37,454 nt of DNA, taken from contig JBMSQQ010000026.1 of the NCBI GenBank assembly GCA_049423385.1, forward strand, positions 1-37,454, written 5' to 3'. Below are positions 8,592-34,306 of the stretch, piece by piece. Both the position numbers and the translations under genes were made by a program. The DNA is from Silvanigrellaceae bacterium (GTDB lineage: Bacteria; Bdellovibrionota_B; Oligoflexia; Silvanigrellales; Silvanigrellaceae). Under the pieces are notes generated by a model, which was not told where the DNA came from, did no database searches, and saw only the letters and a program-made list of their open reading frames with translations. Positions within the stretch are counted from its first letter, which is position 1; each line of letters starts with the position of its first letter.

Positions 8592-9431
8592 ATGAATAGA
8601 AAACGTGTTCCACGAATGGTCATACCATTTTTGATGATTCTGCTTTTTCTCGTTCTGCCCTTGTTTCTGCTGATCGCGAGCCCCAAGCTGTTCAGGTCTT
8701 ATCATTCGGGGGTCGAATCATTTCCGGCACCACGTCGCCTGCTGGTTGTGTTCGCACACACAGACGATGAAGTGACAAATTCCGGCCTCATCCGCCATTG
8801 GGCAAACCAGGGAAGCCAAATTCAGATCCTCACCCTCACCGACGGGGCAGCCAATCCAAATTCAGACCTCACTGCATGCCTTCCAAAGGAAAACATCACT
8901 CAATGTCGATTGCGAGAACTCAGCGATTCAGCCAAAATTCTTGGCATTGGCAAGATCAACGCACCAAAACTTCCCGATTCGCGCTTGATGGAGCATCTGC
9001 CGCAGGCAACGCAAGAGGTTCAATCACTGCTCAACAGCTTTCAACCCGATGCCATTCTCACAATGGAGCCATCGGGCTTGAATGGGCTCGCAGATCATCG
9101 CGCCGCATTCCAATCGGTCGCCCTGGCGCTTCAGGGGAGTCGACAAGATCAACCACGCTTGTATCTTTCAACGCTCCCCCCTCCTTTTTCCTGGGTTTTG
9201 CGCAGTCGGCTCCCGGAAGAACTCGACTCAAGAATAAAAGTCTTTCCAACCGCTGAAGGTCTCGTCGAAATCAAGGTCGAAGATGCCTTTGCACATCGGA
9301 GCCAATCCTCAACCATCAATGGCATCAGTCTTGGCTTGGGACCACGACGATTGTTCTCTTGGATAGATTTTGAAACCTACAGTATTCACCCGGCAAAAGA
9401 GATTGACCAACTGCTGTCGGGATCTCGCTAG
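8592..9431 (+). CDS. PIG-L/LmbE-family deacetylase with N-terminal membrane anchor
   Basis: LLVVFAHTDDE, LTLTDG, RLRELSDSAKILG, ADH, AHRSQ. Confidence 0.85.
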   Translation: MNRKRVPRMVIPFLMILLFLVLPLFLLIASPKLFRSYHSGVESFPAPRRLLVVFAHTDDEVTNSGLIRHWANQGSQIQILTLTDGAANPNSDLTACLPKENITQCRLRELSDSAKILGIGKINAPKLPDSRLMEHLPQATQEVQSLLNSFQPDAILTMEPSGLNGLADHRAAFQSVALALQGSRQDQPRLYLSTLPPPFSWVLRSRLPEELDSRIKVFPTAEGLVEIKVEDAFAHRSQSSTINGISLGLGPRRLFSWIDFETYSIHPAKEIDQLLSGSR

Positions 9432-10984: not shown

Positions 10985-10991
10985 TGAGGAA

Positions 10992-11018
10992 ATATCGGCA
11001 TTTTGTATCATTTGATGA
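10992..11018 (-). promoter_or_regulatory. Sigma-28 (FliA)-type promoter
   Basis: TCAT-N15-GCCGATAT ending 7 nt before ATG 10984. Confidence 0.4.
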
Positions 11019-12879: not shown

Positions 12880-12906
12880 TAATTTTGCTCAATTTTTCTC
12901 CGATAA
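12880..12906 (+). promoter_or_regulatory. Sigma-28 (FliA)-type promoter
   Basis: TAAT-N15-TCCGATAA, about 40 nt upstream of ATG 12948. Confidence 0.55.
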
Positions 12907-12947
12907 GGCTTTTGAATCGAGTTTCAATCCGGAGGCCTGCGCCCGCA

Positions 12948-13829
12948 ATGAAGGATGAACACAAGGCAGCACTCAAAGAAGTGTGCCAGCACATCAAACC
13001 AAGCTTGTATCTGGAGTATTCGTCTTTTCTTGAAGATGTGTACCAGTGGATCAAGACGCGCATCAAACACTATTCTTACATCACTTTCGCCGACGATCTC
13101 GGCTACTCGAAAACAAATGTGATTCACCTCATCATTCGTGGCAAGCGGCGCCTCAGCCCAAAGGGAGTCGATCGCATCACCGATGCGCTCAACATTCGAG
13201 GACCCGAGCGCTTGTATCTTGAAACACTCGTCCGCTATCAAAACGCCCGATTGTCATCAGACAGGGAGTCCCTGTTCAGCAGACTCATGGAGCTGAAGGC
13301 AAAAAATCTCGCTTCGCCTTTGGAACAGAATCAGCTCGAATATTATAGTGAATGGTTTCATCCGGTCATCCGTGAGCTCGTTGGAATGCCGGGCTTCAAT
13401 CCGGATCCACATTGGATCGTGAAACACATCGAGCCTCGCGTTCTGCCTGAACAGGCCAGAAAGAGTTTAGCGCTTCTTCAGGAATTGAACCTGATAAAAA
13501 AATCCGATGAAAATGACTCCTTCGAACTCACCTCACAACACATCAGCACCGGTGATGAAATCGCCAGCCACGCTGTTGTGCGCTTTCATCAACGCACAAT
13601 AGAAATCGGACGAGAATCGGTGACAAATTTCGATCACAACGAGCGGAATGTCAGTTCAGTCACAATGGCATGCTCGCAAGAGATGTTCGACAAGATTGCC
13701 GACGAAATTTCCCAATTCCGAAAGCGGATCCTTGAATTGGCTGATCAAGATGCTTCACCAGACCGGGTTTATCAGTTGAATATTCAATTTTTTCCATTCA
13801 CCCGAAAGATCAAAGGTCAGTCAAAATGA
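12948..13829 (+). CDS. TIGR02147-family protein (N-terminal HTH plus DUF4423)
   Basis: YSYITFADDLG...IIRGKRRLS HTH region, YYSEWFHPVIREL, FHQ, ERNVSSVT, VYQLNIQFFP. Start set at ATG 12948 (GGAGG upstream). Confidence 0.88.
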   Translation: MKDEHKAALKEVCQHIKPSLYLEYSSFLEDVYQWIKTRIKHYSYITFADDLGYSKTNVIHLIIRGKRRLSPKGVDRITDALNIRGPERLYLETLVRYQNARLSSDRESLFSRLMELKAKNLASPLEQNQLEYYSEWFHPVIRELVGMPGFNPDPHWIVKHIEPRVLPEQARKSLALLQELNLIKKSDENDSFELTSQHISTGDEIASHAVVRFHQRTIEIGRESVTNFDHNERNVSSVTMACSQEMFDKIADEISQFRKRILELADQDASPDRVYQLNIQFFPFTRKIKGQSK

Positions 13830-14881
13830 ATGACAAAATCAAATCAAACCAAAAAGGCGCACGTCGGCTCACAAGTTCAATTTTGACGTGTATTTTTTTA
13901 TTGTCCCTGTTGGCCAGCACTTCGTCGTGCGGAACCGAAACCGGAAATCCCGTCATTAAACGCCCAACAACTCCCCGAAACATTGCCCAGGATTCAGTTG
14001 AGGCAGACCTTTTTGAAGCTTCCGAAACCTTGGCGGATTTCAACTCCAATTCCGCTGCCCTCCAGTTGTTTCTGGGTTCGACAAGCGAAGCGACGATAGT
14101 GGATGTCAACGAATGCTCCGGTGACAGCAACCGTGCCACAACAACAATGGAACGCACCAGGGAGAAAACCAAAACTCTGGGTAAAAAAGGCGGAACAATT
14201 TCCCTGCTGTTGGAGCGCAAGCTGACAACAGACTGGATTTCACCCAATGGAGGCCTGGAGTGCGTCGGAAATACTCTGAAGAAAACTTTGCGTCTGATGA
14301 AGGGGGCCAGCGAAACCCGGACTGGTACGGTGATGCGAGGCCTGACTCGAAATTTACAGGGTTCCACTCTCGCGTCAAAAGAGTACTCGAGCGCTAAATT
14401 CAACTCTTCGGGAGAATGGAAAACAAGCTACGACAATCTCGAGGTTCTACCCGAAACCTTGGTGACCACGAGATCATCATCCTGGAATCTTAAAAAATCA
14501 CTGACGACCGCGACCTCAGAAGGCGAAGCATACACAGAGTCTTCCAGTCAAACGAGCCCGACAGCGCCGCTCATCATCAAGGTGGAACGTGCGCGGGGAA
14601 CAGGGATTCTGGTTCAACGCACGATCGAATCGGGAACAATCAAAACGACTCGTTCGGACGGCACGATTGTGGAGATTAGCTTCGAGTCTGCTGTTTTTAC
14701 ACAGACCGACACCTGTTATCCGTCAAAAGGAAAGATGCGGGGTCAAGTGACACCCGCATCATCGAATGGTTCAGATATTGAAACTTTTGAGGTCGATTTC
14801 TCAGCGGGTTACACCGACGCACCAGAGATTCAGTTCCAAGACGGAACCACTGTAGCCCTGAGCGGAGCGTGTTTGGACTGA
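13826..14881 (+). CDS. Hypothetical beta-rich lipoprotein with C-GTETGNP motif
   Basis: ATGA overlap with the TIGR02147 gene. Hydrophobic stretch followed by SSC-GTETGNP. Thr/Ser-rich. Confidence 0.75.
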   Translation: MNDKIKSNQKGARRLTSSILTCIFLLSLLASTSSCGTETGNPVIKRPTTPRNIAQDSVEADLFEASETLADFNSNSAALQLFLGSTSEATIVDVNECSGDSNRATTTMERTREKTKTLGKKGGTISLLLERKLTTDWISPNGGLECVGNTLKKTLRLMKGASETRTGTVMRGLTRNLQGSTLASKEYSSAKFNSSGEWKTSYDNLEVLPETLVTTRSSSWNLKKSLTTATSEGEAYTESSSQTSPTAPLIIKVERARGTGILVQRTIESGTIKTTRSDGTIVEISFESAVFTQTDTCYPSKGKMRGQVTPASSNGSDIETFEVDFSAGYTDAPEIQFQDGTTVALSGACLD

Positions 14882-15374: not shown

Positions 15375-17807
15375 TCACCAGGCGGGGAGGCCTTGCTCAA
15401 GCAGGCGCAGGCTGTCGGAATTTCCGTATGTTACCCTCGGATTATACTCGGAAGCCGCACTGCCATCATGCCGACCCTCAATCAGTACAAGCAAGCCCGC
15501 TTCCGAGAATTGACCCTCAATCTCAAGTCCAAGCTGAATCAAGATGCGGGCAAGCAGGTCGGAGCCGATCTTGTTTGCGCCAAAGCCTTTTGAATAAAAA
15601 GATTCTAAAAACCGCACCTTTGCCTCGGTAGAACGAATGGTTTGGGCATCCCTCAACCGCGGAATAAATTCTTGCGCCAGATAATGGCAGTAGAAACTGC
15701 CCCATTGGGTCGCAATGATTCCGCATCTTTCCTCATTTGCTGTTCCAACTACAGACGAGGGCATTCCCGCAGGGATGACCAGGAACGGCAATCCAAAGGT
15801 GTTGTCAAAAGTGGATGCGACCTGACTCACTGCTTTCCAAACCAGCGACTCGTTTGCGAGCGACGGGTCGAAAATCTTGTCCAACACGGTCGATGGTATT
15901 CCAACCACAATTCGGCCACGGAACCGGCCACCCACTTCACCAAAGTAAAGCTTTTCCAAATTCAGTGACTGCGCCACAGGTCCCAGAATATTTTGGCCTG
16001 TCAGTAAAAACTCTGCAAGATGAGACCTTCCGTACGTCCTTGAATCAATTTCCTGTGCATACCAATACAGAGATTCAGCCCCCGCCGTGTATCCCAGGTC
16101 ACTCATGAAGCCACTGCCACGTTCGCGGGTTTCAGAAGCCATTCCAAAAAGAGTCGCTTGACGAAACCCCCAACGATTCAAAAATCCTTCTCTCGTACCG
16201 CTCTCGGTGCCCGACTGGAAACGATAATTTTCACGACTCCAGTTTTCCGACAGAGCAAACGACATCCTGGGACCAAACTTGATCTGGAATTGACTTTCTG
16301 AAACCTCAACCTTTGAACTTCCGTTCAACAACCTGATCACAGGAGCACCGGTCTCATTCAAAAACGCCCTCGACACTCGCTCTGCCACAACAAAATTGTG
16401 AAGCGACCTCGAGAGTTTCAAAACTCCCGAGGGATCTGGTCTTGCACTCAACAGCACAGCTCCGCCGGACACAGCCTGCAAGAATGCTTCTCGTCCTGTT
16501 TCATTCCTCAGGTCGAATGAGTAATCTCCATAAAATTGTTGTTTGTTCTTGCGAATTTCTGTCCAGCTCACACCTGCGTCGAAGCGGATTTCCTGGTCGC
16601 TGTAGACCTTCAACTTTTCGCCGATCTTCCGGACCTTTAAATTGAGCTGTCCAGGAGATCTCTTCAGCATTGACTCGACGCGTGCAATTGTCTGATTCTG
16701 GATAGCCTCGGCGCTGATTTGTATCGAGGCCGACAAATCAACCAGACCGTCCTGCTTCTTTCTAACCTCGTCTTCAAACTTCTTCGATTCGGCAAGCGAA
16801 TTGCGTGACGAATCTTTGAGAATAGAACCACCCGTAAATTTTCTCAGAACATCGGGAAGTCTCAACCGTTGCTGTCCAATGGCAGTCAAATTCAAGGTCT
16901 TCTTGATTTCTGAAATCTGCTGCAGCTTTGACAAGGGAACAACGGTGACCTTTGCTGCGAGCGATGCCACCGCACCAGCCTCAGTCGACATCGAACGTTC
17001 GTTTTGTTGAAAGATCCTCACCCGAATTCGTTCGTCGTCTGCTTTGAAAATGTGGAGCTCGAATCGTCCGTCGACAACAAGGTTTGCGCGCAGGCCAGTT
17101 TGTGTCTCGCCGATCAGGCTGGCTCCAAGCATGCTGTCCAGAACTCGCCCCATCGACCACGAATGGCGCAAAAAGCTACCGTCAACAGAGGTCATCACCT
17201 GCCCATCGACTGGAACAACAAAAAGATCTCCGGCTCGCATCCGCAGGGCATTGTCCAGATTCACCGGAATATCGACCAGCTGGACCCGTGGCGTTCTCTG
17301 CGCTTCAGCTTCTCCAGAAAAAACCCTGAATACTTTGACTTTTGCTTTTGAAGAAAGGGAAACCTGCAATGCAAAATTGCGATCTTCAAGTCGGATTGTC
17401 GATTTTGGAATAGACTTGTGGATCTTGAGCGTTTCAAGGCGCATCGATTTTTCAGGGAAGTTGATGGACCTTCTTTGAAAACCGGACATCGCCACAATGG
17501 ACGAATATTCGCTTTGCGAAGAATTGAATCCATCGCTGAAAACCTCTGTCGAGACGCTCCCTTCCGAAAGAAGTCGGGAAAGCTCGAAGACATCACCCAC
17601 GGGTTCGGCAATTGCACTCCTCACATATTCACGCGCCTCGCGGTCAACATTGGCGAGAGCTGTCGCCACATCCGAAGATTGGCCATTCTTCTTGCATGCC
17701 GAAAGCAGAACGCCTGGAAAGACCGAAAAAACAACCATCAAAAAGATTTTTTTCATCAATTGAGCATTGGCTTGATTGACACGCGATGAGGTTTCTAGAG
17801 TTTCCAT
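15375..17807 (-). CDS. Large hypothetical lipoprotein (about 800 aa)
   Basis: Long open frame with signal MKKIFLMVV...LLSAC (start 17807 or 17756). No recognisable catalytic motif. Confidence 0.75.
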   Translation of the reverse strand: METLETSSRVNQANAQLMKKIFLMVVFSVFPGVLLSACKKNGQSSDVATALANVDREAREYVRSAIAEPVGDVFELSRLLSEGSVSTEVFSDGFNSSQSEYSSIVAMSGFQRRSINFPEKSMRLETLKIHKSIPKSTIRLEDRNFALQVSLSSKAKVKVFRVFSGEAEAQRTPRVQLVDIPVNLDNALRMRAGDLFVVPVDGQVMTSVDGSFLRHSWSMGRVLDSMLGASLIGETQTGLRANLVVDGRFELHIFKADDERIRVRIFQQNERSMSTEAGAVASLAAKVTVVPLSKLQQISEIKKTLNLTAIGQQRLRLPDVLRKFTGGSILKDSSRNSLAESKKFEDEVRKKQDGLVDLSASIQISAEAIQNQTIARVESMLKRSPGQLNLKVRKIGEKLKVYSDQEIRFDAGVSWTEIRKNKQQFYGDYSFDLRNETGREAFLQAVSGGAVLLSARPDPSGVLKLSRSLHNFVVAERVSRAFLNETGAPVIRLLNGSSKVEVSESQFQIKFGPRMSFALSENWSRENYRFQSGTESGTREGFLNRWGFRQATLFGMASETRERGSGFMSDLGYTAGAESLYWYAQEIDSRTYGRSHLAEFLLTGQNILGPVAQSLNLEKLYFGEVGGRFRGRIVVGIPSTVLDKIFDPSLANESLVWKAVSQVASTFDNTFGLPFLVIPAGMPSSVVGTANEERCGIIATQWGSFYCHYLAQEFIPRLRDAQTIRSTEAKVRFLESFYSKGFGANKIGSDLLARILIQLGLEIEGQFSEAGLLVLIEGRHDGSAASEYNPRVTYGNSDSLRLLEQGLPAW

Positions 17808-17829
17808 CACACCAACCCAATTGTAGAGG

Positions 17830-18771
17830 TTAGAATGCGGACACGATGCCACCAAAAATATAAACCGTCAGGGGGCTCAAATTGACAACATCGGTTTCCT
17901 CGGAAAATTTGAAGCTTCCTTTGACACTCGAAATTTGCGCTCCACCGACCAAGGTGAATGCAGAGCCGAGGTTGAGCCCGGCTGCAAATTCACCACCAAA
18001 TCGTTTGTAGTTGAGTGCCGTTTGCAAGCTGATATCCGTGGACACAATCGACAAATTTCCGGACAGCGGGATCCCGATGATGCCGCCAAGCTTGCAGTAC
18101 AATCGGGCAGAGATGCATTTTGTTATTGATAAAGCCGGATGAATGACAAGTTCGGTGAATTTTGCGGTGACGATGTAATCATCGTTGTTTCCAATCAACG
18201 TTTTTCCGGTCGTTGTTGAACTGAGCGCGGCAACGCCCGCTTCAATGCCAAGCGACGAGCCTGCCATGTATCTGAAAAGAGCTCCGCCAGAATAACCGAT
18301 TCCGCTAAGACCATTGATGGGCTGAGGTGCTGTTTCATTTTCATTTGCAGGCTGCGGCGCGAAGGGTTGCTTGAATGTGTAAAGCCCTGCATTCAATATC
18401 ACCCCGAGGTAAAACTTCTTCCCGCTTCCTGATTTTCCGAGTGCATAGATTGTTCCGGAAACCTTTGGACATTTTCCACCCTTGGAATTGATTGTCACCG
18501 TCGCATTTCGCTTGCTCTTTTTCGTCACAAGGAGGGTCAACGACCTTCCACTCGTGGTTTCTGCCTGGAACGACTCTCCGTTGCGCAGACCATCTGAAGG
18601 CATAATCAACAGGGTGCACTTTTTCTGTTTCAGGACCTCAAAATCGGCGGCTTTTGCATTCTGGGAGACGAAAAAGAACACAAGGGCCAAAAAAAGGCTT
18701 GTAAATGCTGAACATCGCCGCCCTGACCAACCGAAACAACGCAGCAATTTGTGTAATTTTTCTACAGACAA
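17830..18771 (-). CDS. Outer-membrane beta-barrel protein with small N-terminal beta domain
   Basis: Signal peptide ending AKA-ADF, alternating amphipathic strands, C-terminal YIFGGIVSAF with terminal Phe. Start is TTG 18771 (GAGG upstream) or TTG 18795. Confidence 0.7.
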   Translation of the reverse strand: MSVEKLHKLLRCFGWSGRRCSAFTSLFLALVFFFVSQNAKAADFEVLKQKKCTLLIMPSDGLRNGESFQAETTSGRSLTLLVTKKSKRNATVTINSKGGKCPKVSGTIYALGKSGSGKKFYLGVILNAGLYTFKQPFAPQPANENETAPQPINGLSGIGYSGGALFRYMAGSSLGIEAGVAALSSTTTGKTLIGNNDDYIVTAKFTELVIHPALSITKCISARLYCKLGGIIGIPLSGNLSIVSTDISLQTALNYKRFGGEFAAGLNLGSAFTLVGGAQISSVKGSFKFSEETDVVNLSPLTVYIFGGIVSAF

Positions 18772-23790: not shown

Positions 23791-24579
23791 ATGAACGGAC
23801 GATTTGCGATTGTATTTGCGGCAACCTGCATGCTTCTTTTGGCCTGCGGCAAAATCCCCGAGGCCGAAACCCGCCTTCTCTCCCGCCTTGAAACGGCGGA
23901 TTTCATCGTGGAAACGTTTGAGATTTCCCAGCAAAATCTTCAGCCTTCCGGAGAGGAACTGGAGTCAATCAAAGCATCAATCTCCGCACAGCAGGAATCC
24001 CTGAATACCCAACCGAAGGTCGAAAACGGGGGCATAATTGAGCGCTCTGTCCTTGAGGACGGGATTGGCGATCGCATCGACACCGTGACCAGAATCGTCA
24101 ATGCCTTTGCCGATATCATGAAAAAAGTGGTCGCCCCCGACACACCGCTCATGAAAGGCAATGTCATTGCCGAGGCTCGCCCCGAAGGCCTGCAACCCAT
24201 CGACCTGCAGAACAGCAAATACGCTGGAAAGACGTTCAAGAAGCGATTCAAAAGTCTCATGGGCTTCACACTTGTCGAGACCGAATACAAAATCACCTAT
24301 GCCTATGCAGCCGACAACAATGGCAAAGGACAGTACATTCCGTACGTTCTTTTCACTCCGATGAAAATTGTGCTCGACCCTCTTTGGCATTTGGAAGCCG
24401 ACTCCCTCTCGCTCGCTCCCAGAAATTCCGGTACACTCGAGAATCCCATCGCCGCACTCGAATTCAATCTTGCATTCAAGGCGAAAGGTCTGACAGGCAC
24501 TGTGATGGCTGCAGACACGTTTTCCTTGAACGCCCAGACAGGTGAGCTCGTGTTCGACGGGAGGGATTTTCAGCCGTAG
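23791..24579 (+). CDS. Hypothetical lipoprotein
   Basis: AAGGAGG RBS, lipobox LLAC, beta-rich C-terminal domain (GKGQYI, NSGTLENPIA). Confidence 0.75.
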   Translation: MNGRFAIVFAATCMLLLACGKIPEAETRLLSRLETADFIVETFEISQQNLQPSGEELESIKASISAQQESLNTQPKVENGGIIERSVLEDGIGDRIDTVTRIVNAFADIMKKVVAPDTPLMKGNVIAEARPEGLQPIDLQNSKYAGKTFKKRFKSLMGFTLVETEYKITYAYAADNNGKGQYIPYVLFTPMKIVLDPLWHLEADSLSLAPRNSGTLENPIAALEFNLAFKAKGLTGTVMAADTFSLNAQTGELVFDGRDFQP

Positions 24580-24612: not shown

Positions 24613-25809
24613 ATGAATTTTCCAACGGATGGTCTTCGCGCCGCGCACAACTTGAGCGCGGGCATTGTTCCTCGTACCACGTCCTCTGATATTGTTGAGA
24701 TGAGTTGGTTCGCCCCAATTTGTTCGGATGATTTTGAATATCTGGGTGTTCCGGAGTCCCGCCTCAAAAGTTCATGGTCACACGTCTCAAAAATTGCAAT
24801 CGAAGCTGAAAAACAAGGGTTCGACAACATGTTGTGCCCCAGCAGCTATCAGGTTGGGCAAGACACGCTCACCTTTGCTTCTGCATTGGCTCCGCAACTC
24901 AAGAAAATGAGTCTCCTGGCAGCCATCCGTTGCGGAGAAGTGCACCCTGCTATGCTCGCGCGAACTCTTGCAACCCTCGACCATCTTCTCGAAGGGCGAC
25001 TGACGGTCAACATCATTTCGTCTGACCTTCCCGGCGAAACGATGGACTCGAAAGCACGCTATGCCCGCTCGCGCGAAGTTTGCCAGATTCTGCGCCAGTG
25101 CTGGACGCAAGAAGAAATCAACTTTGAAGGCGAATTTTATAAACTGAGATTGCCCACCGCGCCCGTCAAGCCTTACCAGCAAAACGGCGGCCCCTTGCTT
25201 TATTTTGGTGGGCTTTCACCCGACGCACTGGATCTTTGTGCACGCGAATGTGACGTGTTCTTGATGTGGCCCGAGACTGAAGATCGCCTGCGTGCGCACA
25301 TGCAGGAAATGACCCGTCGCTCTGAAGCTTATGGCCGGCGTGTGGACTTTGGATTGCGGGTTCACATGATTGTCCGCGAAACAGAACAAGAAGCAGCTGC
25401 TGCAGCCCGAAAACTCGTTTCAAAACTTGATGACGGCAAGGGTTCCGAGATTCGCAACCGGGCTCTTGATGCCAAGTCATTTGGTGTCGCAATGCAAGCC
25501 GAAATGCGTTCGATGGCGGATGAAGACGGCTATGCCGAAGAACTTTTGTGGACGGGTGTGGGCCGAGCACGCTCGGGCTGTGGCTGCGCACTGGTGGGAA
25601 CACCAGACCAGATCGTTGCCAAATTGAACCGCTACATCGACATGGGTATTCGCTCGTTCGTTCTCTCGGGTTACCCTCACCTTGATGAATGCGGGCTCGT
25701 TGGCCGGTACGTTCTTCCACACTTTCGCAGGGGCAAACTGGCCGAAATCCAGGGCCGCATTCCCGCAACTCTTCCCAACACACCCCTTGGAGCAGGAATC
25801 CGTCAATGA
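24613..25809 (+). CDS. smoC: LLM-class flavin-dependent monooxygenase, sulfoquinovose monooxygenase (SmoC/SquD)-like
   Basis: [83 protein letters not shown] and TPLG.G.R match my recollection of Agrobacterium SmoC much better than SsuD. Gene context agrees. Confidence 0.82.
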
Positions 25810-26699
25810 AAAACAACTTTGAAATGTCTCCCTTGGTTTTTGGCGCCTGGCGTTTGGCAGATGTTCCTGCGGAAGCAAATCCCGATTCCGTGGCACGCAA
25901 GATCACCATGGCACTCGAGCACGGCATCACGACGTTCGACCACGCCGACATTTATGGAAACTATGAATGCGAAGACCTGTTTGGCCGCGCTGTCGCCAAA
26001 CACGGAATTCCGCGCGAGAAGATGAAACTCATCACCAAGTGTGGAATCAAGCTGGTTTCAACCAACCGCCCGCAACATGGCATTAAGACATACGACACAA
26101 GCGCAAAGCACATTGTGACCTCGGTTGAAACTTCTCTCAAGAATTTGCGCACCGACAGCATCGACCTGCTGCTGATCCACAGGCCGGACCCACTGATGAA
26201 CCCCGCAGAAGTGAATGAAACCTTCAACACACTGCACAAACAGGGCAAGGTGAAGGCATTTGGTGTTTCGAATTTCACCACGACGCAGGTGCGCATGCTG
26301 CAGTCGCAGTTGACGCTTCCGCTGGTCAGCAACCAGATTGAATTCTCGGTTCTGAACAACACAGCCATGTTCAACGGGCAGCTGGATCAGTGCATTGAAA
26401 TGAACATGGTTCCCATGGCGTGGTCTCCACTTGCAGGTGGACGCCTGTTCACCCAAACTGATGAACGCAGCATGCGCTTGCGCGAATGTCTGTCGACACT
26501 GGCAAAAAAGTACAATGTGACAAGCCCGGAAACGATCGCTTATGCATGGCTGATGAGACATCCTTCGCGTGTTGTTCCGGTTTTGGGTACCGGCAAGGAA
26601 GAGCGTCTGAAAGCCGCTGTCGGTGCGCTCAAGGTGCAACTTGAACATGAAGACTGGTTCCACATTCTCAAGGCATCGGTTGGCCATGACGTGCCGTAA
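25806..26699 (+). CDS. smoB: Aldo/keto reductase (YdhF-like), SmoB/SquF-like 6-oxo-glucose reductase
   Basis: [60 protein letters not shown] overlap with smoC. The family call is solid; the ortholog call rests on context. Confidence 0.75.
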
Positions 26700-27999
26700 T
26701 TTGCGCGCGTCTTGTGGCTTCTTGCTGGCAGCGCTTTCTGGCTTGGTTGCATGCACCTGGAAACCCTTCGGCAGTGCAGGAAACGGAAAGCCGGTTGTGA
26801 AAGTGCTCACATTCCGTGACAGACAATCGGCAGCGTTGAGGGATGCACTGCCGGAGTTCGAGGCACAGCACGACGTGCGCGTGCAATTCGATGACATTCC
26901 AGCCTCGACGGTCGCAACCAAAATGATGACCGACCTTGCTGCCGGCGGAACATACGATGTTTATGCGGTCGACGAACCGTTTATTCCACAGTTTCACGAG
27001 GCACTCCTACCCGTGGAACAATGGCCGGTTCAGATGCCACAGGGCGAACTTTCAAAATTTGAAGACCGGGCCATGGAAGCGGCACGCGTGAATGGCACGA
27101 CGATTGGATTGCCGGTGAATGGCAATGTTTATCAGTACGTGTACCGCAAAGACCTGTTTGAATCGCCAGACGAGAAGGCTGCATTTCGGCAGCGCTTCGG
27201 CAGAGAGCTTCGCCCTGCCGCCAACATGAATGAGCTCATTCAAGTCGCGCAGTTTTTCCACCGCCCACCCAAGCTGTATGGCTTTGCACCATTCACAAAA
27301 ATGTCGGAAGGAACCACTGTCGAATTGCTTTGGCTTCTTGCGGCCAACGGCGCTGCACTGGGGCAGGCGAATACCACTTTCGACAATCCGACCATCGAAA
27401 ACGCGCTGCGCAATTATTCCGAGCTGCTGAAGACAGCGCCGAAGTCCGCACGCGCTTGGCATCACACCGAAAGAATGTCGGCCTATGCCAAAGGCAAGGT
27501 TGCCCAGATGATGACCTGGAACAGCTTCTTTTTCGATTTGGAAGATGAACACAAATCATTGGTCGTCGGCAAAACGGGATACGCGGAATCACCCGGAACA
27601 CATTCCACCAGCCTTGCAGGCAGCTGGATTGCGGGTGTTAGAAAAAGCTCATCCAACGCAGCCGCGGCCAGCGCGTTTGTCCGCTGGTGGACATCGTTTG
27701 AAGTCAACTCCAACCTCGTACACAAGGGCTTGAGCAGTGCGCGCAGTGATGTGCTCACAAACGGACCTCTGGCTGATAAATTCCCTTGGCTGACCACGAC
27801 TCATCTCAATTTTCAACGGGCGTTTTTGCGACCGCGCCACAAGAATTATCGCGCAACATCCGACGAAGTCAGCAAAGCCTTCACCCGATGGATTGCAGGT
27901 CAGACAACTGACACCGAAGCTGCAGCAGCGTTGCGGATTGCCTTGGCGCGCATGGATGAATTGGCACCAGGCCGCATGGCCGGCAAGGAGCCGCGCTGA
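26686..27999 (+). CDS. Carbohydrate ABC transporter substrate-binding lipoprotein
   Basis: Lipobox LVAC, YDVYAVD, GLPVNG..YVYRKDLF, GKVAQMMTW, LAGSW, AFVRW. Confidence 0.9.
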   Translation: MTCRNLRASCGFLLAALSGLVACTWKPFGSAGNGKPVVKVLTFRDRQSAALRDALPEFEAQHDVRVQFDDIPASTVATKMMTDLAAGGTYDVYAVDEPFIPQFHEALLPVEQWPVQMPQGELSKFEDRAMEAARVNGTTIGLPVNGNVYQYVYRKDLFESPDEKAAFRQRFGRELRPAANMNELIQVAQFFHRPPKLYGFAPFTKMSEGTTVELLWLLAANGAALGQANTTFDNPTIENALRNYSELLKTAPKSARAWHHTERMSAYAKGKVAQMMTWNSFFFDLEDEHKSLVVGKTGYAESPGTHSTSLAGSWIAGVRKSSSNAAAASAFVRWWTSFEVNSNLVHKGLSSARSDVLTNGPLADKFPWLTTTHLNFQRAFLRPRHKNYRATSDEVSKAFTRWIAGQTTDTEAAAALRIALARMDELAPGRMAGKEPR

Positions 28000-28886
28000 T
28001 GATGAGCACCAAACTCCAACGTTCGCTGGTCGTTTTTCTATTTCCAGGCTGTGCGCTGCTCACGCTGCTGATCGGCTGGCCCATTCTTCAGAGTGCTTTC
28101 AGTTCACTCACCCTGTTGCCGTCGGGACCTGCAGGCAAACAATTGTTTGCCGGTGCAACCCACTACAAAAATCTTCTCAGCCAAAATTCATTCTGGAATT
28201 CGATCTGGTTGGCAGTTCTTTTCACGGTTGTTACAACTGCTCTCGAACTCTGCATCGGATTGGTTGTGTCATTGTTTCTTTATTTCCAAAAGACCTTGCC
28301 ACGCCTCGTCGAAATACTTCTCATTTTGCCGATGTTCATTCTGCCGGTCGTGTCTGGGCTCACCTTCCGTTACATTTATGATCCCAACGATGGCCCCTTG
28401 TCGTTTGTCTTTGATGCTTTGGGTATTGAACCTGCTGCGCCATTGGCGGATCCTTTCTGGGCGTTTTGGTCGATTGTTCTTCAGGACATCTGGCGGATGT
28501 GGCCTTTCCTGTTTTTGATTGTCTATGCTGGCCTCAAAGCCTTGCCGCGCTCTGCACAGGAAGCGGCGCGCATGGACGGCGCAAGCACATGGCAGATCAT
28601 CAAATTCATACTTTTGCCTGCATTGCGTCCCACACTCGGTATTGCCGTGGGGCTCAAGATCATGGAGTCGCTCAAGGTTTTCACTGAGGTTTACGTCATG
28701 ACGGGCGGCGGCCCGGGCGACTCGACGTCGTTGTTGTCGCTTTACGTCGTCAAGCAGGCTTTCCACTTTTTCCAGACGGGGCCAGCCTCGGCAGCGTCCA
28801 TCTTGTTGCTGGCCTTTGGCATGGCACTCGCGTGGTCAATCACACGCATTCAAAATCGAACAGCACCTGCGGGGAGTGCGCATTGA
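27999..28886 (+). CDS. Carbohydrate ABC transporter permease (MalF-type)
   Basis: DIWRMWPF, EAARMDGAS (EAA loop), VMTGGGPG. TGATG coupling to the upstream gene. Confidence 0.93.
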   Translation: MMSTKLQRSLVVFLFPGCALLTLLIGWPILQSAFSSLTLLPSGPAGKQLFAGATHYKNLLSQNSFWNSIWLAVLFTVVTTALELCIGLVVSLFLYFQKTLPRLVEILLILPMFILPVVSGLTFRYIYDPNDGPLSFVFDALGIEPAAPLADPFWAFWSIVLQDIWRMWPFLFLIVYAGLKALPRSAQEAARMDGASTWQIIKFILLPALRPTLGIAVGLKIMESLKVFTEVYVMTGGGPGDSTSLLSLYVVKQAFHFFQTGPASAASILLLAFGMALAWSITRIQNRTAPAGSAH

Positions 28887-29719
28887 TGATTCAGGTGGAA
28901 CAACGCCCATTGCCAACAGTTTCAAAGATTATCATTGCAGCATTGTTGTTTTTGCAATTGGCACCCATTGCAATCATCATCCAGACAGCATTCAAAACAC
29001 CACGCAGCCTCTTGGAAAGTGGTTCGCTTTCGATGCAAGGATGGACGCTTGGCAATTTTCACCGGATTTTTGTTGAACAGAGTTTGGGCGCTGATCTTCT
29101 CAATTCAGTCGTCGTGGCGATGGGAACCATGGCGCTTTCGGTTTGCTGTGGATCTCTGATGGCCTATGCACTCACCCGTTGGCAGGGTAAGAATCGCAAA
29201 CATCTGCTCACAACTCTCCTCGTTGCCCGCTTGTTGCCTCCTGTGGCTCTGGCTCTGCCACTCTTTTTGGTGTTGCGTGGCCTGAATCTGCATGATTCAC
29301 GCAGTGGTTTGATTCTTGCCCACACGGCTTTGAATTTTCCCTTGGCAACGTGGATCCTCATGCCATTCATGGACAGTGTGCCAAGGGCCTTGGAGGAGGC
29401 AGCGTCGATCGACGGCGCAGGCCGATTCAGAACATTTGCTCACATCGTGCTGCCGGTCACAAAACCTGGTCTTGTGGTCGCCTCATTGTTTTGTTTTTTG
29501 ATGAGCTGGAACGACTTCCTGTTCTCGCTGATTCTTGCGGGTTCCGAGGTCAAGACAGCCCCCCTTACGCTCAACGGTTACATCACCGGATTCGGCACTG
29601 AATGGGGCCCTTTGAGCGCAGGAGCTTGTGTTCTTCTGCTGCCCGTTTTTGCTCTGTCTTTTAAACTTCATCAACACATGATCGCTGCGCCCACGCAGGG
29701 CGGCGTTAAGGGAGCCTGA
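28886..29719 (+). CDS. Carbohydrate ABC transporter permease (MalG-type)
   Basis: AFKT, LNS, AYAL, LEEAASIDGAG, SWNDFLF. TGATG coupling to the upstream gene. Confidence 0.93.
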   Translation: MIQVEQRPLPTVSKIIIAALLFLQLAPIAIIIQTAFKTPRSLLESGSLSMQGWTLGNFHRIFVEQSLGADLLNSVVVAMGTMALSVCCGSLMAYALTRWQGKNRKHLLTTLLVARLLPPVALALPLFLVLRGLNLHDSRSGLILAHTALNFPLATWILMPFMDSVPRALEEAASIDGAGRFRTFAHIVLPVTKPGLVVASLFCFLMSWNDFLFSLILAGSEVKTAPLTLNGYITGFGTEWGPLSAGACVLLLPVFALSFKLHQHMIAAPTQGGVKGA

Positions 29720-29720
29720 C

Positions 29721-31832
29721 ATGAGAATTTCAAACGAAGCAGCTCAGGACATCAATTTCCCGCTCACACCCGAATGGCCATCGCTGACAGCGAGAGCTCG
29801 TGGTGCGGTGCGCATGACGCCAGTGACTGCCTGCGAATTGATGCCTTCACGCGAGCGCAATTCTTTCCTGAAGTTCCAACTCACGTTCAAGGATGGAACC
29901 ACCACGAATCTTCAAATCGGTGCTCTCGACACCACACCACACGCATGGATGTTGTGGATGGGCGAAGCTTCCCGCAAGCATGATCTTTTAAGCAACGTCA
30001 TGTCCAACGAAATCACCAGCGAGAAGACCGCTGCGGGTTGGTGTTTGCGCTCGGCGGCGGGGACTCTGGAAATCAATCGCCTAACCGCCGCAATCTGCAT
30101 CCGCGATGCAGCCGGAAAGCGTGCGTGGAGTTCGGTCGACAAGGATCTGTTCGTGGGTGATGTGCCGATGAGCTTTGCCGCTTTTCGGCATGCCGACGGA
30201 TTTGGAATGACTTTTGATTTTGGAGAATGCCAGCAGATCTGGGGCGGCGGTGAACAATTCGGCCCAACCAATTGGCGCGGCAAGCTCTATGACGTGATCA
30301 ATTCGGATGCGTTGGGCGTCAATGGTCACCTGCGCTACCAAAGCACGCCTTTTTTTGTGAGCGAACGCGGGCATTCATTTGCCATGCTTCAATGTGAACC
30401 GGGACGAATTGATTTCGGCTCGCGTCGACACGACATGATCACTTTCAGCAGCGATGGTCAGGTGCTCGGTCTTTACCTGGCAATGCCAGCAGATCAACCC
30501 ACCGCAATCGAAAAATGGCGTGCGTTGATGGGTGGTGTGAGCAGTGTGCCCGCATGGAGTTACGGACTTTGGCTTTCACGCTGTTTCTACAAGGATGAAG
30601 CCGAACTGCGCACCGTGATTGATGGTAACAGCAAACACAATCTGGGTGCCACGGTCATCAATCTTGATGCACGTGCGTGGATGCGTGCGCAGACTCGCAC
30701 CGACTTTGTCTGGGACACTTCGCGTTGGAGCCCTTATCAAACCTTCATTCCCTGGCTACGCGAGCAAGGATTTCATGTTTGCCTTTGGGAAAATCCGTAT
30801 GTGTCGTCGGCAACAGAAACACTTTATGCCGAAGGCGTGCGCAACGGATATTTCGCCAAAACAGCCAAAGGCGAAGTTTATCCATACCAATGGGTTCCCA
30901 CCGGACTTGAAGGTTTCCCTCAACCACCCGTGGCTGGCCTTGTTGATTTCACCAATCCGAAAGCCTGCACCTGGTGGAAAGATCAACACCGTGCACTTTT
31001 GCGCGCTGGCGTCACCTGTTTCAAAACAGACTTCGGCGAAGAAATTCCTCATGATGCTCACTTTCACGACGGCAGCACCGGCAAGCAGCTGCGCAACGTC
31101 TATTCGGATCTCTACAATCTCTGCGTGATGGAAGTCGTGCGCGAGGAATGCGGAGATGAAGGAATTCTGTGGGCACGATCGGGTTACACCAAGATGGGCA
31201 AGACTCCAGTGAAATGGGCTGGCGACAGCCAAACCTCGTGGACGGCATTGCGCGCCTCGTTGCGCGGTGGATTGTCGCAGGCCGTGGGTGGTGCTGTGTT
31301 CTGGTCGCATGACATTGGCGGCTTTTATGGTCCGTTTCCTGATGCGGAATTATACGTGCGTTGGACGCAGGTCGGACTCTGGGGCAGCCACGCCCGCATG
31401 CATGGCACGAGTGCGCGCGAACCATGGGAATTTGGCACGGCGGCAATGGACCAGGTGCGCAAAGACGTTCGCTTCAGAACGGAACTCCTGCCCTACTGGA
31501 CTGCCTGCGGCGAACAATGCACACGCAGCCAACAAAGCTTTGTTCGGCCGCTGTGGATGGCAAATCCTGCGGACGCCTTGAGCTGGACTGTCGAAGACCA
31601 GTTCTTTGCAGGCTCAAACGAAGTTGTCGTGGCACCCTATCTCAGTGCTGAAGGTGGGCGTCGTGTCTATCTACCGGCGGGGGAATGGCTTTGCCTCAAC
31701 AGCGGAACAACGTTTCCGGGACACACCCTTGAAAACATCGACCGATGGAACGAATGCCCGGTGTTTATCAGAACTGATTCAGCCTGGAAGGAATTGTTCG
31801 CGAAGGCGTGGGCGAAAGTTTACGGAAGATAA
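29721..31832 (+). CDS. Glycoside hydrolase family 31 (YicI/alpha-xylosidase-like sequence; candidate sulfoquinovosidase by context)
   Basis: WGGGEQFG, PAWSYGLWLSR, CLWENPY, VDFTNP, nucleophile FKTDFGE, acid/base WAGD, WSHDIGGF, RMHG..REPW. Confidence 0.92.
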   Translation: MRISNEAAQDINFPLTPEWPSLTARARGAVRMTPVTACELMPSRERNSFLKFQLTFKDGTTTNLQIGALDTTPHAWMLWMGEASRKHDLLSNVMSNEITSEKTAAGWCLRSAAGTLEINRLTAAICIRDAAGKRAWSSVDKDLFVGDVPMSFAAFRHADGFGMTFDFGECQQIWGGGEQFGPTNWRGKLYDVINSDALGVNGHLRYQSTPFFVSERGHSFAMLQCEPGRIDFGSRRHDMITFSSDGQVLGLYLAMPADQPTAIEKWRALMGGVSSVPAWSYGLWLSRCFYKDEAELRTVIDGNSKHNLGATVINLDARAWMRAQTRTDFVWDTSRWSPYQTFIPWLREQGFHVCLWENPYVSSATETLYAEGVRNGYFAKTAKGEVYPYQWVPTGLEGFPQPPVAGLVDFTNPKACTWWKDQHRALLRAGVTCFKTDFGEEIPHDAHFHDGSTGKQLRNVYSDLYNLCVMEVVREECGDEGILWARSGYTKMGKTPVKWAGDSQTSWTALRASLRGGLSQAVGGAVFWSHDIGGFYGPFPDAELYVRWTQVGLWGSHARMHGTSAREPWEFGTAAMDQVRKDVRFRTELLPYWTACGEQCTRSQQSFVRPLWMANPADALSWTVEDQFFAGSNEVVVAPYLSAEGGRRVYLPAGEWLCLNSGTTFPGHTLENIDRWNECPVFIRTDSAWKELFAKAWAKVYGR

Positions 31833-34222
31833 GCGCATCGGAAGCCTCGTTCGCCGGCGGTTTGAGTTGGATCTACATTGAATACCGTGGTGAACACACC
31901 AGCTGTACTACCCCATCCATACCACCCGTTACGCATGACTGCGTCACCAGAGCCAGGAACGCTTCTTTCCAATTTTCCGACATACTGGGCAGTGGTGTAA
32001 TTTCCATTTGGCGCGAATATCAGTCGATTTATTAAGTCGGGAAAATTTGTAAGGTCACTATATTCGCTGCTGGTTGCAACAACTGGATTCAACCCCAATT
32101 CCGAGAAATTGTCGCTGACCCACTGAAATATGTTACCCGAAAAATCCCAAACAACTTCGCCATTGCTGAGAAAAAGTGTTCGACGGTGCTCCCAACCCGA
32201 AGTTGGACTATTGCCTGTCCCATAATAGCCATCGGAATCATCTGCTGAGTTGTCCAACTTCGAGCTTGGAGAAGTATCGGTGTGACCACGTGCCATAAAA
32301 CCACTTCCGACCGTTCCCCCACTCCAGTTTGCAGCAACGTTTTCAACATTTCGCGCCACTGTTTGCCACTGCGTGTTTGAAATGAGCCGGTGCGTTCCGC
32401 CTGGTGCGTCCTTACACGCTTTAAATGCACTCCCAAAGGTGGCCTCGTTGGCACCACGTGTAATCATTCCCCAAGGCAAGCCTGACGATGTGCTTGTGGC
32501 ATAGGCTTTTGCATTGTTGTCTTTGGCTGGATATTTCATCACGCAAAAGTCTTTATCAACGTCAAGCCACCAATTTGCATTCCCCTTCGCTGCACTGGCA
32601 TTACCAAGACCGTCAATGCCGCTGGCCGGTACGCCGACGTAACCCACAGGACATAAAAACGCGGAACGGGTAAATGTTCTGGAAGAAATTGGTCCGGGTA
32701 CTCCTGCCACATCCGACCAGGCATCCACAGTCACCGATTGCGAAATTCCGGCGGGAAGGTGAACCTCAACAGAAAGATTGTTCGACGTGCAGGTCACAGA
32801 ACGCACAGAGCCGATGGATGACTTCGCCTGATAAGAACCAATTCCATCACACGTTCCGGTTAAAATCGCCCGAAGACCGCTGAGTGAAGTCAAAGTGAGT
32901 GCCGACGAGTTCACATTGACCAAAAATTTACTGGTCGTTGTGAGAAGTCCGTCGGAAGCTGTCATGATGACTTCGGTGCTTCCGCTTTGATTGTTTGCCG
33001 GAAAGATGGAAAGCACGCAATCAGGTGCACTGCCTCCAACGACGATTCCAGAGTTTGGTAAAAGAGTTGTGTTGCTCGACCGAATTGTGACGGAAGAGGA
33101 ACAGGAAAGGGGTGATTCTGCGTCTGTCAGAGTGAATGGCAAGTTCAGGATTGGTTTGTTTACTTCCACCGATTGCGCCGGAATGGCTGCTATATCGGGA
33201 GCGGTATTGCTGCTGAGAGGTGAAACTCGAAACACTGGCGAGAGTCTGATTTCAGTTGATGACTCAGCAACAAAGCGTGCGTAGACATCTGTTCCTTCTG
33301 TGAATGGAAAACCCGATTTTAAAATTCCGCATTGACCCACGCTGGACAGATCAAGTGGTCCACTTGCAGCGCTGCGGAAACCCAAATCCGTGCAGCCATA
33401 AAAATCGCTGACCACATTCACTCCGGCTGCCGCGCCCGGCCAGACAGGTGTTGTTTCGATCAGGCCGTCCCAATTGGACACTTCCGCCTGGGATTTTGAA
33501 AACACCAAGCGCACATCTGCCGTTTGAGGGAATGGATTTTTCCACTCGAAACGAGCAGAAGTCGCACTGCTTAGATTGTCGACGCTGGTCCACATTCCTG
33601 GCTTTTTGCCCGCAACTGCTTCAACATTCGGAAGAGATGACACTTTAATTTTTTGCTTTGTGGGCGTGATTTGAGTGATATCCGTGGAACTTAATACTCC
33701 GCCGATGTTTTCTGGAATCTGCAATCCAAGTCTTCGTTTGAAAACTGTGATCGGTGCGGTTCCATCGGGCAATTTTGCGGCTGCTTGTGCGGTTTCCTCC
33801 CCTGCCAGAGGCGGAGCACCTGCATCGGCTCGTGCTTGATTGACAGGCCTGATGAGCTCCTCAGGAAGTTCAAGATCAGACAAAACAAGCTTGCTTTGCA
33901 GAACCACCTTCAATGGAATTGATTTGGATTTGATTTCAGTCACAGGCAGCGAAAACTCACCAGCTTGATTGGTTTTGCTTTGATAGCTGGAATTCTCGAC
34001 ACTCAGCGTGGCATCGACGACAGGTGAGCCATTGTACTCCAGCAACACGCCCGTCAAGAACGATCCCAGAACTGGGGTCGGTGGAATCACATCGCCCGGA
34101 GGCGGCATTGAACCATTTGTTCCCGAAGAGCCACCAAAGACTGATGACTTTTTTTGGCAAGCAAGTCCCGAACAAGCGAACAAAACAAGAGCGAGCATCA
34201 ATCCTGAGCCCTTGGACAGCAT
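31820..34222 (-). CDS. Large lipoprotein: Ig/cadherin-like stalk plus C-terminal FGE-sulfatase-like (C-type lectin fold) domain
   Basis: Lipobox (LFAC or GLAC). Cadherin-like repeat NTAP.I..IP...TDAE...SSN..LLP...ASDG. C-terminal CPVGYVGVP, FCVMKY, LISNTQW, WDFSGNIFQWV, GFRC. Start at ATG 34222 (GAGG RBS). Confidence 0.82.
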   Translation of the reverse strand: MLSKGSGLMLALVLFACSGLACQKKSSVFGGSSGTNGSMPPPGDVIPPTPVLGSFLTGVLLEYNGSPVVDATLSVENSSYQSKTNQAGEFSLPVTEIKSKSIPLKVVLQSKLVLSDLELPEELIRPVNQARADAGAPPLAGEETAQAAAKLPDGTAPITVFKRRLGLQIPENIGGVLSSTDITQITPTKQKIKVSSLPNVEAVAGKKPGMWTSVDNLSSATSARFEWKNPFPQTADVRLVFSKSQAEVSNWDGLIETTPVWPGAAAGVNVVSDFYGCTDLGFRSAASGPLDLSSVGQCGILKSGFPFTEGTDVYARFVAESSTEIRLSPVFRVSPLSSNTAPDIAAIPAQSVEVNKPILNLPFTLTDAESPLSCSSSVTIRSSNTTLLPNSGIVVGGSAPDCVLSIFPANNQSGSTEVIMTASDGLLTTTSKFLVNVNSSALTLTSLSGLRAILTGTCDGIGSYQAKSSIGSVRSVTCTSNNLSVEVHLPAGISQSVTVDAWSDVAGVPGPISSRTFTRSAFLCPVGYVGVPASGIDGLGNASAAKGNANWWLDVDKDFCVMKYPAKDNNAKAYATSTSSGLPWGMITRGANEATFGSAFKACKDAPGGTHRLISNTQWQTVARNVENVAANWSGGTVGSGFMARGHTDTSPSSKLDNSADDSDGYYGTGNSPTSGWEHRRTLFLSNGEVVWDFSGNIFQWVSDNFSELGLNPVVATSSEYSDLTNFPDLINRLIFAPNGNYTTAQYVGKLERSVPGSGDAVMRNGWYGWGSTAGVFTTVFNVDPTQTAGERGFRCAYLP

Positions 34223-34278
34223 AACCCTCTCTTTTCCGTGATCGCTACGAAATTCCATTTCCGAACAGCCTCGCGGGT

Positions 34279-34306
34279 GAATCGGCTTTCCCAGTGACAA
34301 ACTTTA
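34279..34306 (-). promoter_or_regulatory. Sigma-28 (FliA)-type promoter
   Basis: TAAAGTTT...GCCGATTC (TAAA-N16), about 55 nt upstream of ATG 34222. Confidence 0.55.

Follow-up and report, generated by a model that had tools for sequence, protein, structure and literature searches.

A conserved six-gene operon in Silvanigrellaceae as a probable modular variant of the oxidative sulfoquinovose pathway

Does a member of the Bdellovibrionota carry a complete oxidative pathway for sulfoquinovose (SQ), a sugar of sulfolipid headgroups of which ~10 billion tonnes are produced per year by an estimate quoted in the accessible parts of SQ papers? This question is raised by a 37,454-nucleotide contig of a Silvanigrellaceae bacterium (GenBank assembly GCA_049423385.1, contig JBMSQQ010000026.1, positions 1 to 37,454 of the forward strand), which we call the window, meaning the whole stretch of DNA that was analysed. 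A first-pass annotation made from the sequence alone had read six tightly coupled genes at 24613-31832 as a variant of the SQ monooxygenase pathway (sulfo-SMO), and this reading proved to be the best explanation of their content, coupling, protein families and co-occurrence. Our analysis indicates that the SmoC-linked operon is real and conserved, and that it is probably a modular sulfo-SMO variant through which SQ glycosides are taken up and oxidatively degraded to completion.

The operon and its conservation

All six open reading frames (ORFs) were found where they had first been placed, on the + strand and with ATG starts, and their junctions within 24613-31832 consist of successive overlaps of 4, 14, 1 and 1 nt followed by a 1-nt gap before the last gene. 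The genes of the operon, together with one upstream neighbor, are as follows.

24613..25809, + strand: luciferase-like monooxygenase (LLM; 398 aa, PF00296), candidate SmoC-type SQ monooxygenase dependent on reduced flavin mononucleotide (FMNH2)
25806..26699, + strand: aldo/keto reductase (AKR; 297 aa, PF00248) of the SmoB/YdhF family, candidate 6-oxo-glucose reductase
26686..27999, + strand: CUT1-type sugar-binding lipoprotein of an ATP-binding cassette (ABC) importer (substrate-binding protein, SBP; 437 aa, PF01547/PF13416), not SmoF-like
27999..28886, + strand: ABC permease 1 (295 aa, PF00528), best NCBIfam match GlcT-/UgpA-like but below cut-off
28886..29719, + strand: ABC permease 2 (277 aa, PF00528), best NCBIfam match GlcU-/MalG-like but below cut-off
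29721..31832, + strand: cytoplasmic GH31 alpha-glycosidase (703 aa, PF01055+PF21365+PF13802), candidate sulfoquinovosidase
23791..24579, + strand: upstream lipoprotein gene with a good ribosome-binding site, 33 nt before the LLM gene, probably not core

The gene content, coupling and family membership can be read directly from the DNA, and conservation was assessed in a locus survey that used an alignment of 29 GH31 sequences (the group at 41-96% identity), scanned one genome per species and covered the best 80 of 114 relatives. The order SmoC-AKR-SBP-permease-permease-GH31 was present in 13/13 loci in which the GH31 was at least 46% identical and enough upstream DNA was available; five further loci of the SmoC-linked GH31 clade end upstream and were left out of this count. 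The 13 complete six-gene loci span at least two families and one Myxococcota metagenome-assembled genome (MAG), and both operon order and orientation were kept down to 46-55% protein identity. In contrast, a SmoC-type gene was found near none of the GH31s below 40% identity (0/62 loci), around which up to 10 kb of DNA per side was inspected, many contigs being shorter. The recurrence of the six-gene order is far beyond chance.

The same association was seen at the level of whole genomes. Within the genus of the host, the SmoC-type gene was present in 12/12 genomes, the AKR in 12/12 and the GH31 in 11/12, the single genome without the GH31 being 76% complete. All three genes were present in four other genera of the family, each was found in 0/5 genomes (94-98% complete) of one related genus, and the three were present or absent together across 41 related genomes. 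Within the phylum, the boundary of which was taken as set by the genome search used, a SmoC-type gene (E <=1e-100) occurred in 23 of 131 sampled genomes, spread over five families.

The host genome measures 3.47 Mb and is 90.6% complete. That it belongs to the Bdellovibrionota had been guessed from the sequence, and the guess was right: its same-genus relatives are recorded as Silvanigrellaceae, which NCBI places in the class Oligoflexia, Bdellovibrionota. The accompanying remark that such a host would be unexpected stands only in part, since the pathway was assigned to Alpha- and Betaproteobacteria in the accessible text of a 2022 paper (PMC8795539), but the available portions of a 2026 survey (PMC13372026) report sulfo-SMO clusters in Actinomycetota and Spirochaetota, and its supplementary table scores one Oligoflexales (Bdellovibrionota) genome as sulfo-SMO. 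A literature search returned no paper pairing Silvanigrella with sulfoquinovose, of two papers containing both sulfoquinovose and Bdellovibrionota the one listed concerns sulfate reducers, and the supplement of a 2026 review contains no Silvanigrellaceae, Bdellovibrionota or Oligoflexia entry. At least half of the window's sampled words were detected in six DNA sequencing runs from two studies, labelled freshwater metagenome and marine metagenome, one of which may be the source sample, and none of the 20 sequencing runs listed was an RNA data set carrying the window.

Components of the predicted pathway

The LLM matches PF00296 with an E-value of 6.8e-55. In phmmer searches against PDB chains it scored 502 bits (E 1e-149) against 7OH2 and 494 bits (E 4e-147) against 7OLF, both of which are crystallised SmoC, compared with 213, 195 and 110 bits against the other LLM structures MsuD, SsuD and SfnG, respectively, and it fell under the NCBI SsuD equivalog cut-off (242 vs 518 bits). 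With the Rhizobium sp. SL42 LLM serving as the SmoC stand-in for identity and tree (800 bits and 384 collinear residues against 7OLF), identity was 58% to this stand-in and 33% to E. coli SsuD. In a quick IQ-TREE of 33 rows, in which characterised SmoC is represented by proxies, the LLM nested between the Novosphingobium LLM and the Rhizobium and Marinovum LLMs, with SsuD far outside on a very long branch. The choice between SmoC/SquD and SsuD therefore falls to SmoC in both scores and tree. Two motifs that the first-pass annotation had named as SmoC-specific were also located exactly, at residues 75-84 and 312-324, and are identical in the SmoC proxies and different in E. coli SsuD.

The residues Y136, S189, W206, R236, H238, Y341 and H343 are given in the accessible text of PMC8795539 as the putative sulfonate and FMN-phosphate sites of RoSmoC, and all seven are kept in the LLM (7/7), as Y150, S202, W219, R249, H251, Y354 and H356. 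Taken together, these scores, motifs and tree position make it very likely that the LLM is a SmoC-type SQ monooxygenase. In the same paper SmoC is reported to accept SQ specifically and to show no activity towards sulfoquinovosyl glycerol (SQGro), and a glycosidase step would therefore be needed upstream of it.

The AKR retains an intact catalytic tetrad (D45/Y50/K78/H125), and its R126 and K94 match the SmoB glucose contacts R152 and K120, as numbered in the SmoB paper (native numbering + 22). Whether it is closer to SmoB or to YdhF received a divided answer. In a 32-row tree, SmoC-linked AKRs, including that of the window, occupied one side (14 rows, Shimodaira-Hasegawa-like approximate likelihood ratio test [SH-aLRT] support 86, with the SmoC linkage of four of these rows inferred indirectly), and YdhF fell with Bacillales and Planctomycetes AKRs (14 rows, support 84), whereas bit scores against PDB entries were slightly nearer YdhF (255-269 bits for YdhF-like structures, 238 bits for SmoB 7BBY), as were identities. 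In all 13 complete loci, as in the clusters of Rhizobium, Marinovum, G086, G048 and G049, an AKR gene immediately follows the one for SmoC, and this position is the strongest evidence for the role of the AKR. It thus appears quite probable that the AKR is a SmoB-type reductase.

For the GH31, the earlier assignment to the SmoI/YihQ type was not borne out, since its scores are YicI-like (278 bits for YicI, 110 for YihQ and 86 for the Agrobacterium sulfoquinovosidase) and 0/4 of the Q/E-RWY positions are present. The nucleophile D437 and the acid/base D502 are intact, and no signal peptide was found at the N-terminus. The AlphaFold2 (AF2) model has a predicted local distance difference test (pLDDT) score of 89.9, and Foldseek gave query-normalised TM-scores (TMq) of 0.80-0.82 for YicI and 0.70 for YihQ.

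Database relatives of this protein split into a group of ~700 aa at 41-96% identity and, at 40% or less, ordinary alpha-xylosidases. In a 77-row FastTree, to which a long-branch warning applies, the SmoC-linked GH31s and those of the five upstream-cut loci formed one clade (19 rows, 100% support, stem 1.06), which is sister to the GH31s of two loci, L028 and L029, and stands apart from both the YicI clade and GH31_13. The residue R326 is Arg in 19/19 clade members vs 3/56 other GH31_3-like sequences, T325 is found in 19/19 vs 0/56 and A317 in 19/19 vs 1/56, and R458 stands in place of a His kept in 55/56 of the others. The clade-specific changes towards basic residues comprise R205, R236, R267, R326, R458, K498 and R511. 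In other searches, the profile scan with the GH31 found no gammaproteobacterial relative among the best 80 of 114, a plasmid search returned nothing above 38% identity in 42 records, and a protein-cluster search matched only generic alpha-xylosidase clusters. We regard the GH31 as a candidate sulfoquinovosidase, an assignment that is somewhat favored.

The two sister loci carry SBP-permease-GH31 modules:

L028:6903-11812: module in a Dictyoglomaceae MAG
L029:6979-11797: module in an unclassified MAG

In both, SBP and permease homologues (33-38% identity) precede the GH31 gene with no SmoC or AKR gene nearby, and their GH31s share R318 and an extra loop with that of the window and have Gln at the R326 position. 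These loci have the look of an ancestral uptake and glycosidase module that stands on its own, and because they keep the SBP and permeases without SmoC, the comparison suggests that the operon arose by the joining of two modules. It is an evenly balanced proposition that the GH31 is the founding member of a third sulfoquinovosidase lineage, neither GH31_13 nor SqgH (a second type of GH31 sulfoquinovosidase, compared below), which would recognise the sulfonate with a basic pocket around R326, the position of SqgH R302, and would have arisen when the SmoC-AKR core was joined to an alpha-glycoside module such as that of L028 and L029.

The label of lipoprotein given to the SBP by the first-pass annotation is reasonable, as its signal peptide ends in a lipobox-like L-V-A-C. 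Its proposed equivalence to SmoF was not upheld: the best PDB matches were MalE3 (E 9e-15) and a trehalose/maltose binder, and SmoF ranked only fifth (E 7.5e-8, 35 bits), behind maltose/trehalose binders. No similarity was detected between the SBP and that of the Marinovum sulfo-SMO cluster (E 0.73). The SBP and both permeases are nevertheless position-conserved in all 13 complete loci. An SQ-type substrate for the transporter is somewhat favored. No ABC ATPase gene was found in the cluster; the host genome encodes a single orphan UgpC/MalK-type ATPase (472 bits vs a cut-off of 432), and in L023 and L025, which hold distant forms of the operon, a MalK-type ATPase gene lies directly 3' of the GH31 gene.

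Proposed pathway and alternative readings

Each substrate and reaction in the following scheme is predicted from sequence. The SBP and two permeases would import an alpha-SQ glycoside, most likely SQGro, with the orphan UgpC/MalK-type ATPase energising transport. The cytoplasmic GH31 would then free SQ from the glycoside by means of D437, D502 and the clade-specific basic pocket that includes R326. The SmoC-type monooxygenase, using FMNH2 and O2, would cleave the C6-S bond to yield sulfite and 6-oxo-glucose, and the latter would be reduced to glucose by the AKR at the expense of NAD(P)H. As searches detected no gene of the SmoA type, housekeeping flavin reductases would have to supply FMNH2. 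Two-component monooxygenases can draw reduced flavin from non-cognate reductases, and FMN_red proteins are encoded in the host genome.

The downstream steps for glucose and sulfite appear feasible. A ROK-family kinase, a CysI-like protein and a TauE protein are all present elsewhere in the host genome, in which a Glk-type kinase was not found. The ROK-family kinase could phosphorylate glucose, and sulfite could be assimilated by the CysI-like reductase or exported by the TauE-family protein. In one Silvanigrellaceae genus, the gene immediately 5' of SmoC (L024:3264-4202) encodes a membrane protein of PF03601 (YeiH-type). The Rhizobium SL42 cluster contains a gene annotated as "putative sulfate exporter family transporter", which we equated with the PF03601 protein by name, and the latter is a candidate sulfite or sulfate exporter.

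Several observations weigh against this scheme and lower the confidence that can be placed in its individual parts. For the monooxygenase, the seven RoSmoC-equivalent residues are also present in SsuD and are hence silent on sugar specificity. The reductase is 46% identical to YdhF, against 42-44% for SmoB stand-ins (for the Rhizobium sp. SL42 AKR, 522 bits and 297 collinear residues against 7BBY), its placement in the AKR tree is weakly supported, and K94 does not discriminate, Lys occurring at this position in nearly the whole AKR family. We had tried K94 (SmoB K120) as a marker of SmoB versus YdhF and rejected it when the signal seen with 12 sequences was lost with 32, Lys being near-universal and the Gly of YdhF the exception. 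For the glycosidase, the positions of EcYihQ Q288, R301, W304 and Y508 are occupied by D316, a gap, T327 and F535, the nearest characterised relatives are alpha-xylosidases and alpha-glucosidases, and R318 is also found in 14/56 unlinked GH31s. Apart from sharing the general fold, the SBP shows no detectable relationship to any known binder of SQ or SQGro. No regulator for the operon was identified, and a PF01613 (SmoA-type) flavin reductase was found neither in the host genome (0 hits at 90.6% completeness, in a search that matched 13/14 control genomes) nor in the operon flanks scanned. A FMN_red protein was considered as a dedicated partner of SmoC and rejected, the best one being present in 30/41 relatives with or without SmoC.

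The leading alternative is that two functions share one locus, with SmoC and the AKR acting on free SQ and the SBP, permeases and GH31 forming an ordinary alpha-glucoside or alpha-xyloside module. The GH31 is indeed YicI-like in both sequence and fold and has no RWY motif, and the SBP resembles maltose/trehalose binders. There is also a precedent in the Marinovum sulfo-SMO cluster, the GH13 of which had been put forward as a sulfoquinovosidase but turned out to be a broad alpha-glucosidase that lacks this activity, according to the accessible text of bioRxiv 10.1101/2023.03.31.535182. Although L028 and L029 demonstrate that an uptake and glycosidase module can exist without SmoC, the linkage of the module to SmoC is strict over deep divergence (13/13 vs 0/62 loci), and the genes are translationally coupled. 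The GH31 clade has a long stem and many clade-specific basic residues, R326 stands opposite SqgH R302 (matched by eye), and the cluster contains no other SQ importer, while SmoC is reported to refuse SQGro (PMC8795539, accessible text). We therefore consider two co-located functions unlikely.

A second alternative is that the LLM acts on another sulfonate, either a 6-sulfo sugar such as sulfofucose or a small alkanesulfonate, and that the operon serves a related substrate. The accessible text of PMC8795539 describes no SQ-bound SmoC structure, so that the specificity residues are not defined there; furthermore, the LLM is only 58% identical to the characterised type, and both the glycosidase and the SBP are non-canonical. 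However, the LLM lies inside, rather than beside, a family spanning the Rhizobium/Agrobacterium and Novosphingobium types, and for the genera that contain these types the available portions of PMC13372026 report growth on SQ via sulfo-SMO. Its paired AKR keeps the equivalents of the SmoB glucose contacts, and the GH31 belongs to the retaining alpha-glycosidases, which fits alpha-linked SQ glycosides, making a different sulfonate very improbable. Finally, that the genes are chance neighbors or mis-called ORFs can be dismissed almost outright, for although neither a promoter immediately 5' of 24613 nor a terminator past 31832 was called in a simple scan (with counts at or below shuffle expectation and thus uninformative), all six ORFs have strong Pfam matches, every junction is an overlap or a 1-nt gap, and the order is conserved to 46-55% identity across at least two families and one other phylum.

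If the sulfo-SMO reading of the operon is correct, a whole freshwater lineage (Silvanigrellaceae, class Oligoflexia) would join the full SQ mineralisers; SQ degraders in lakes are mostly inferred from marker genes. On the reading of the GH31 as a third sulfoquinovosidase lineage, mineralisation of sulfolipid headgroups by freshwater Silvanigrellaceae and related groups would have gone unrecognised, and current surveys would miss or under-call these organisms because they seek sulfoquinovosidases of GH31_13 or GH188 and require 60% identity to SmoC. The GH31 clade would in addition offer a candidate new sulfonate-recognising lineage open to a cheap and concrete test.

The genes that flank the operon were also inspected. 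Some members of the genus, but not all, have the upstream lipoprotein gene (23791-24579), which is flanked by a CoA-transferase gene and the operon. It holds its position in only 3/13 complete loci (L012, L013 and L022) and was therefore not counted as core; it is also found in L002-L004, which are tied to the genomes of L012/L013 or to G003. Its product matched no Pfam family even at an E-value of 1, and its AF2 model was unusable (pLDDT 49). On the other side, an 826-aa ORF on the - strand (31820-34300) runs towards the GH31 gene, the last 13 nt of which it overlaps; this ORF has no significant Pfam family, and relatives do not retain it next to the operon. A relationship between this ORF and a second 826-aa ORF at 15375-17855 was ruled out (E 0.83).

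Elsewhere in the window, a DUF4423 protein (PF14394) is encoded at 12885-13829, and Pfam assigns no family to many neighboring ORFs (for example, 131-979, 981-1628, 9428-11011 and 13826-14881). A Scramblase-family protein (PF03803) is encoded at 1793-2479, and a second Silvanigrellaceae genus encodes one close to its operon (L027:2925-3620). The Scramblase family is best known from eukaryotes.

Comparison with known systems

The first-pass annotation had stated that the Agrobacterium sulfo-SMO pathway uses the same parts, which holds for the monooxygenase and the AKR and does not hold for the other four of the six genes. Like smoABCDEFGHI of Agrobacterium (Sharma et al. 2022, PMC8795539, as described in its accessible text), the window cluster combines SmoC followed by a SmoB-family AKR with ABC and SBP import and an in-cluster GH31, and the predicted products are sulfite and glucose in both. 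In contrast with SmoI, a GH31_13 enzyme, the window GH31 is GH31_3-like, and the SBP is not SmoF-like. The window cluster also has no SmoA, SmoE (ATPase) or SmoD (regulator), and its gene order differs.

A parallel to the glycosidase is SqgH, a GH31 sulfoquinovosidase of marine Gammaproteobacteria that has no RWY motif, formally falls in GH31_3 and acts together with the sulfo-SDO dioxygenase pathway (Nat Commun 2025, PMC12780224, cited from its accessible portions). SqgH and the window GH31 are alike in being GH31_3-like, in having neither the Q/E-RWY motif nor a signal peptide and in length (688 vs 703 aa). They also have in common the motif L-D-[GA]-R-A-W-x5-T-R, the last Arg of which is R302 in SqgH, one of its predicted substrate contacts (R302, T377, K412 and F513), and R326 in the window GH31; by eye, the R302/R326 match sits in a collinear block of 18 residues, from L-D to W-D, in both proteins. 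By a hand count, AmSqgH and the window GH31 are ~37% identical over ~155 residues, under the 50% homologue cut-off of that paper, and window versions of the motif had 0 matches in the available PMC12780224 sequence tables.

This comparison has its own weak points for the scheme, having been made by eye, with no computed alignment, on the first 400 of the 688 AmSqgH residues. T377 is not kept, its counterpart being P400 or Q401, and K412 and F513 lie past the compared residues and by offset probably correspond to K435 and F535, which are common to all GH31_3. The partners differ as well: SqgH belongs to a marine sulfo-SDO pathway, whereas the partner of the window GH31 is SmoC rather than SqoD, in freshwater-type Silvanigrellaceae. 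The SmoC-linked GH31 clade may thus be a mechanistic relative of SqgH that nevertheless stands apart from it.

Among characterised proteins, E. coli YicI is the best match to the GH31, with 34% identity in addition to its leading bit score and TMq. The two share the catalytic Asp pair, K435, R486, F535 and H561 and differ at YicI C307/F308, which are A317/R318 in the window GH31, at YicI W315, which is R326, and at the His of the H-N motif, which is R458. C307/F308 of YicI presumably set its xylose specificity. Compared with YicI, the window GH31 has an extra loop at 391-403 and is ~70 residues shorter, and YicI-clade genes in the locus survey had no SmoC neighbor.

Beyond the Silvanigrellaceae, other Oligoflexia-level families carry SmoC-AKR with different partners (L107/G086, L108/G048, and L106 and L109 from G049 and G036). 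In one such family the partners are a TonB-dependent receptor and a complete ABC system with no glycosidase, in another a GH13 and a sodium:solute symporter, and in a third an ATPase, a 504-aa protein and a member of the AstE/AspA family, which is represented in the cluster of Rhizobium sp. SL42 too. On the Emticicia oligotrophica (Bacteroidota) plasmid pEMTOL05 (L092, 6489-12417), a SmoC-type LLM (56% identity) lies beside a sodium/solute symporter and a GH95, with no AKR annotated in the 16.6 kb viewed.

The sulfo-SMO clusters of Roseobacter, Rhizobium and Novosphingobium, compared from annotated plasmid records, share the LLM-AKR core with the window, while transport and glycosidase functions are swapped as modules: they carry Gfo/Idh/MocA-type (GH188-like) or GH31_13-like glycosidases together with tripartite ATP-independent periplasmic (TRAP), TonB or other ABC transporters. 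The Roseobacter and Rhizobium clusters carry a PF01613-type flavin reductase, and the Novosphingobium cluster, like that of the window, has no flavin reductase gene. The 2026 survey (PMC13372026, available portions) scores sulfo-SMO by SmoB and SmoC homologues within a 10-ORF window, and in the present operon the two are adjacent. Taken together, these comparisons identify the SmoC-AKR pair as the pathway's portable core, around which transporters, glycosidases and flavin reductase are interchangeable or outsourced, and this affects how the "completeness" of the pathway is scored in genome surveys.

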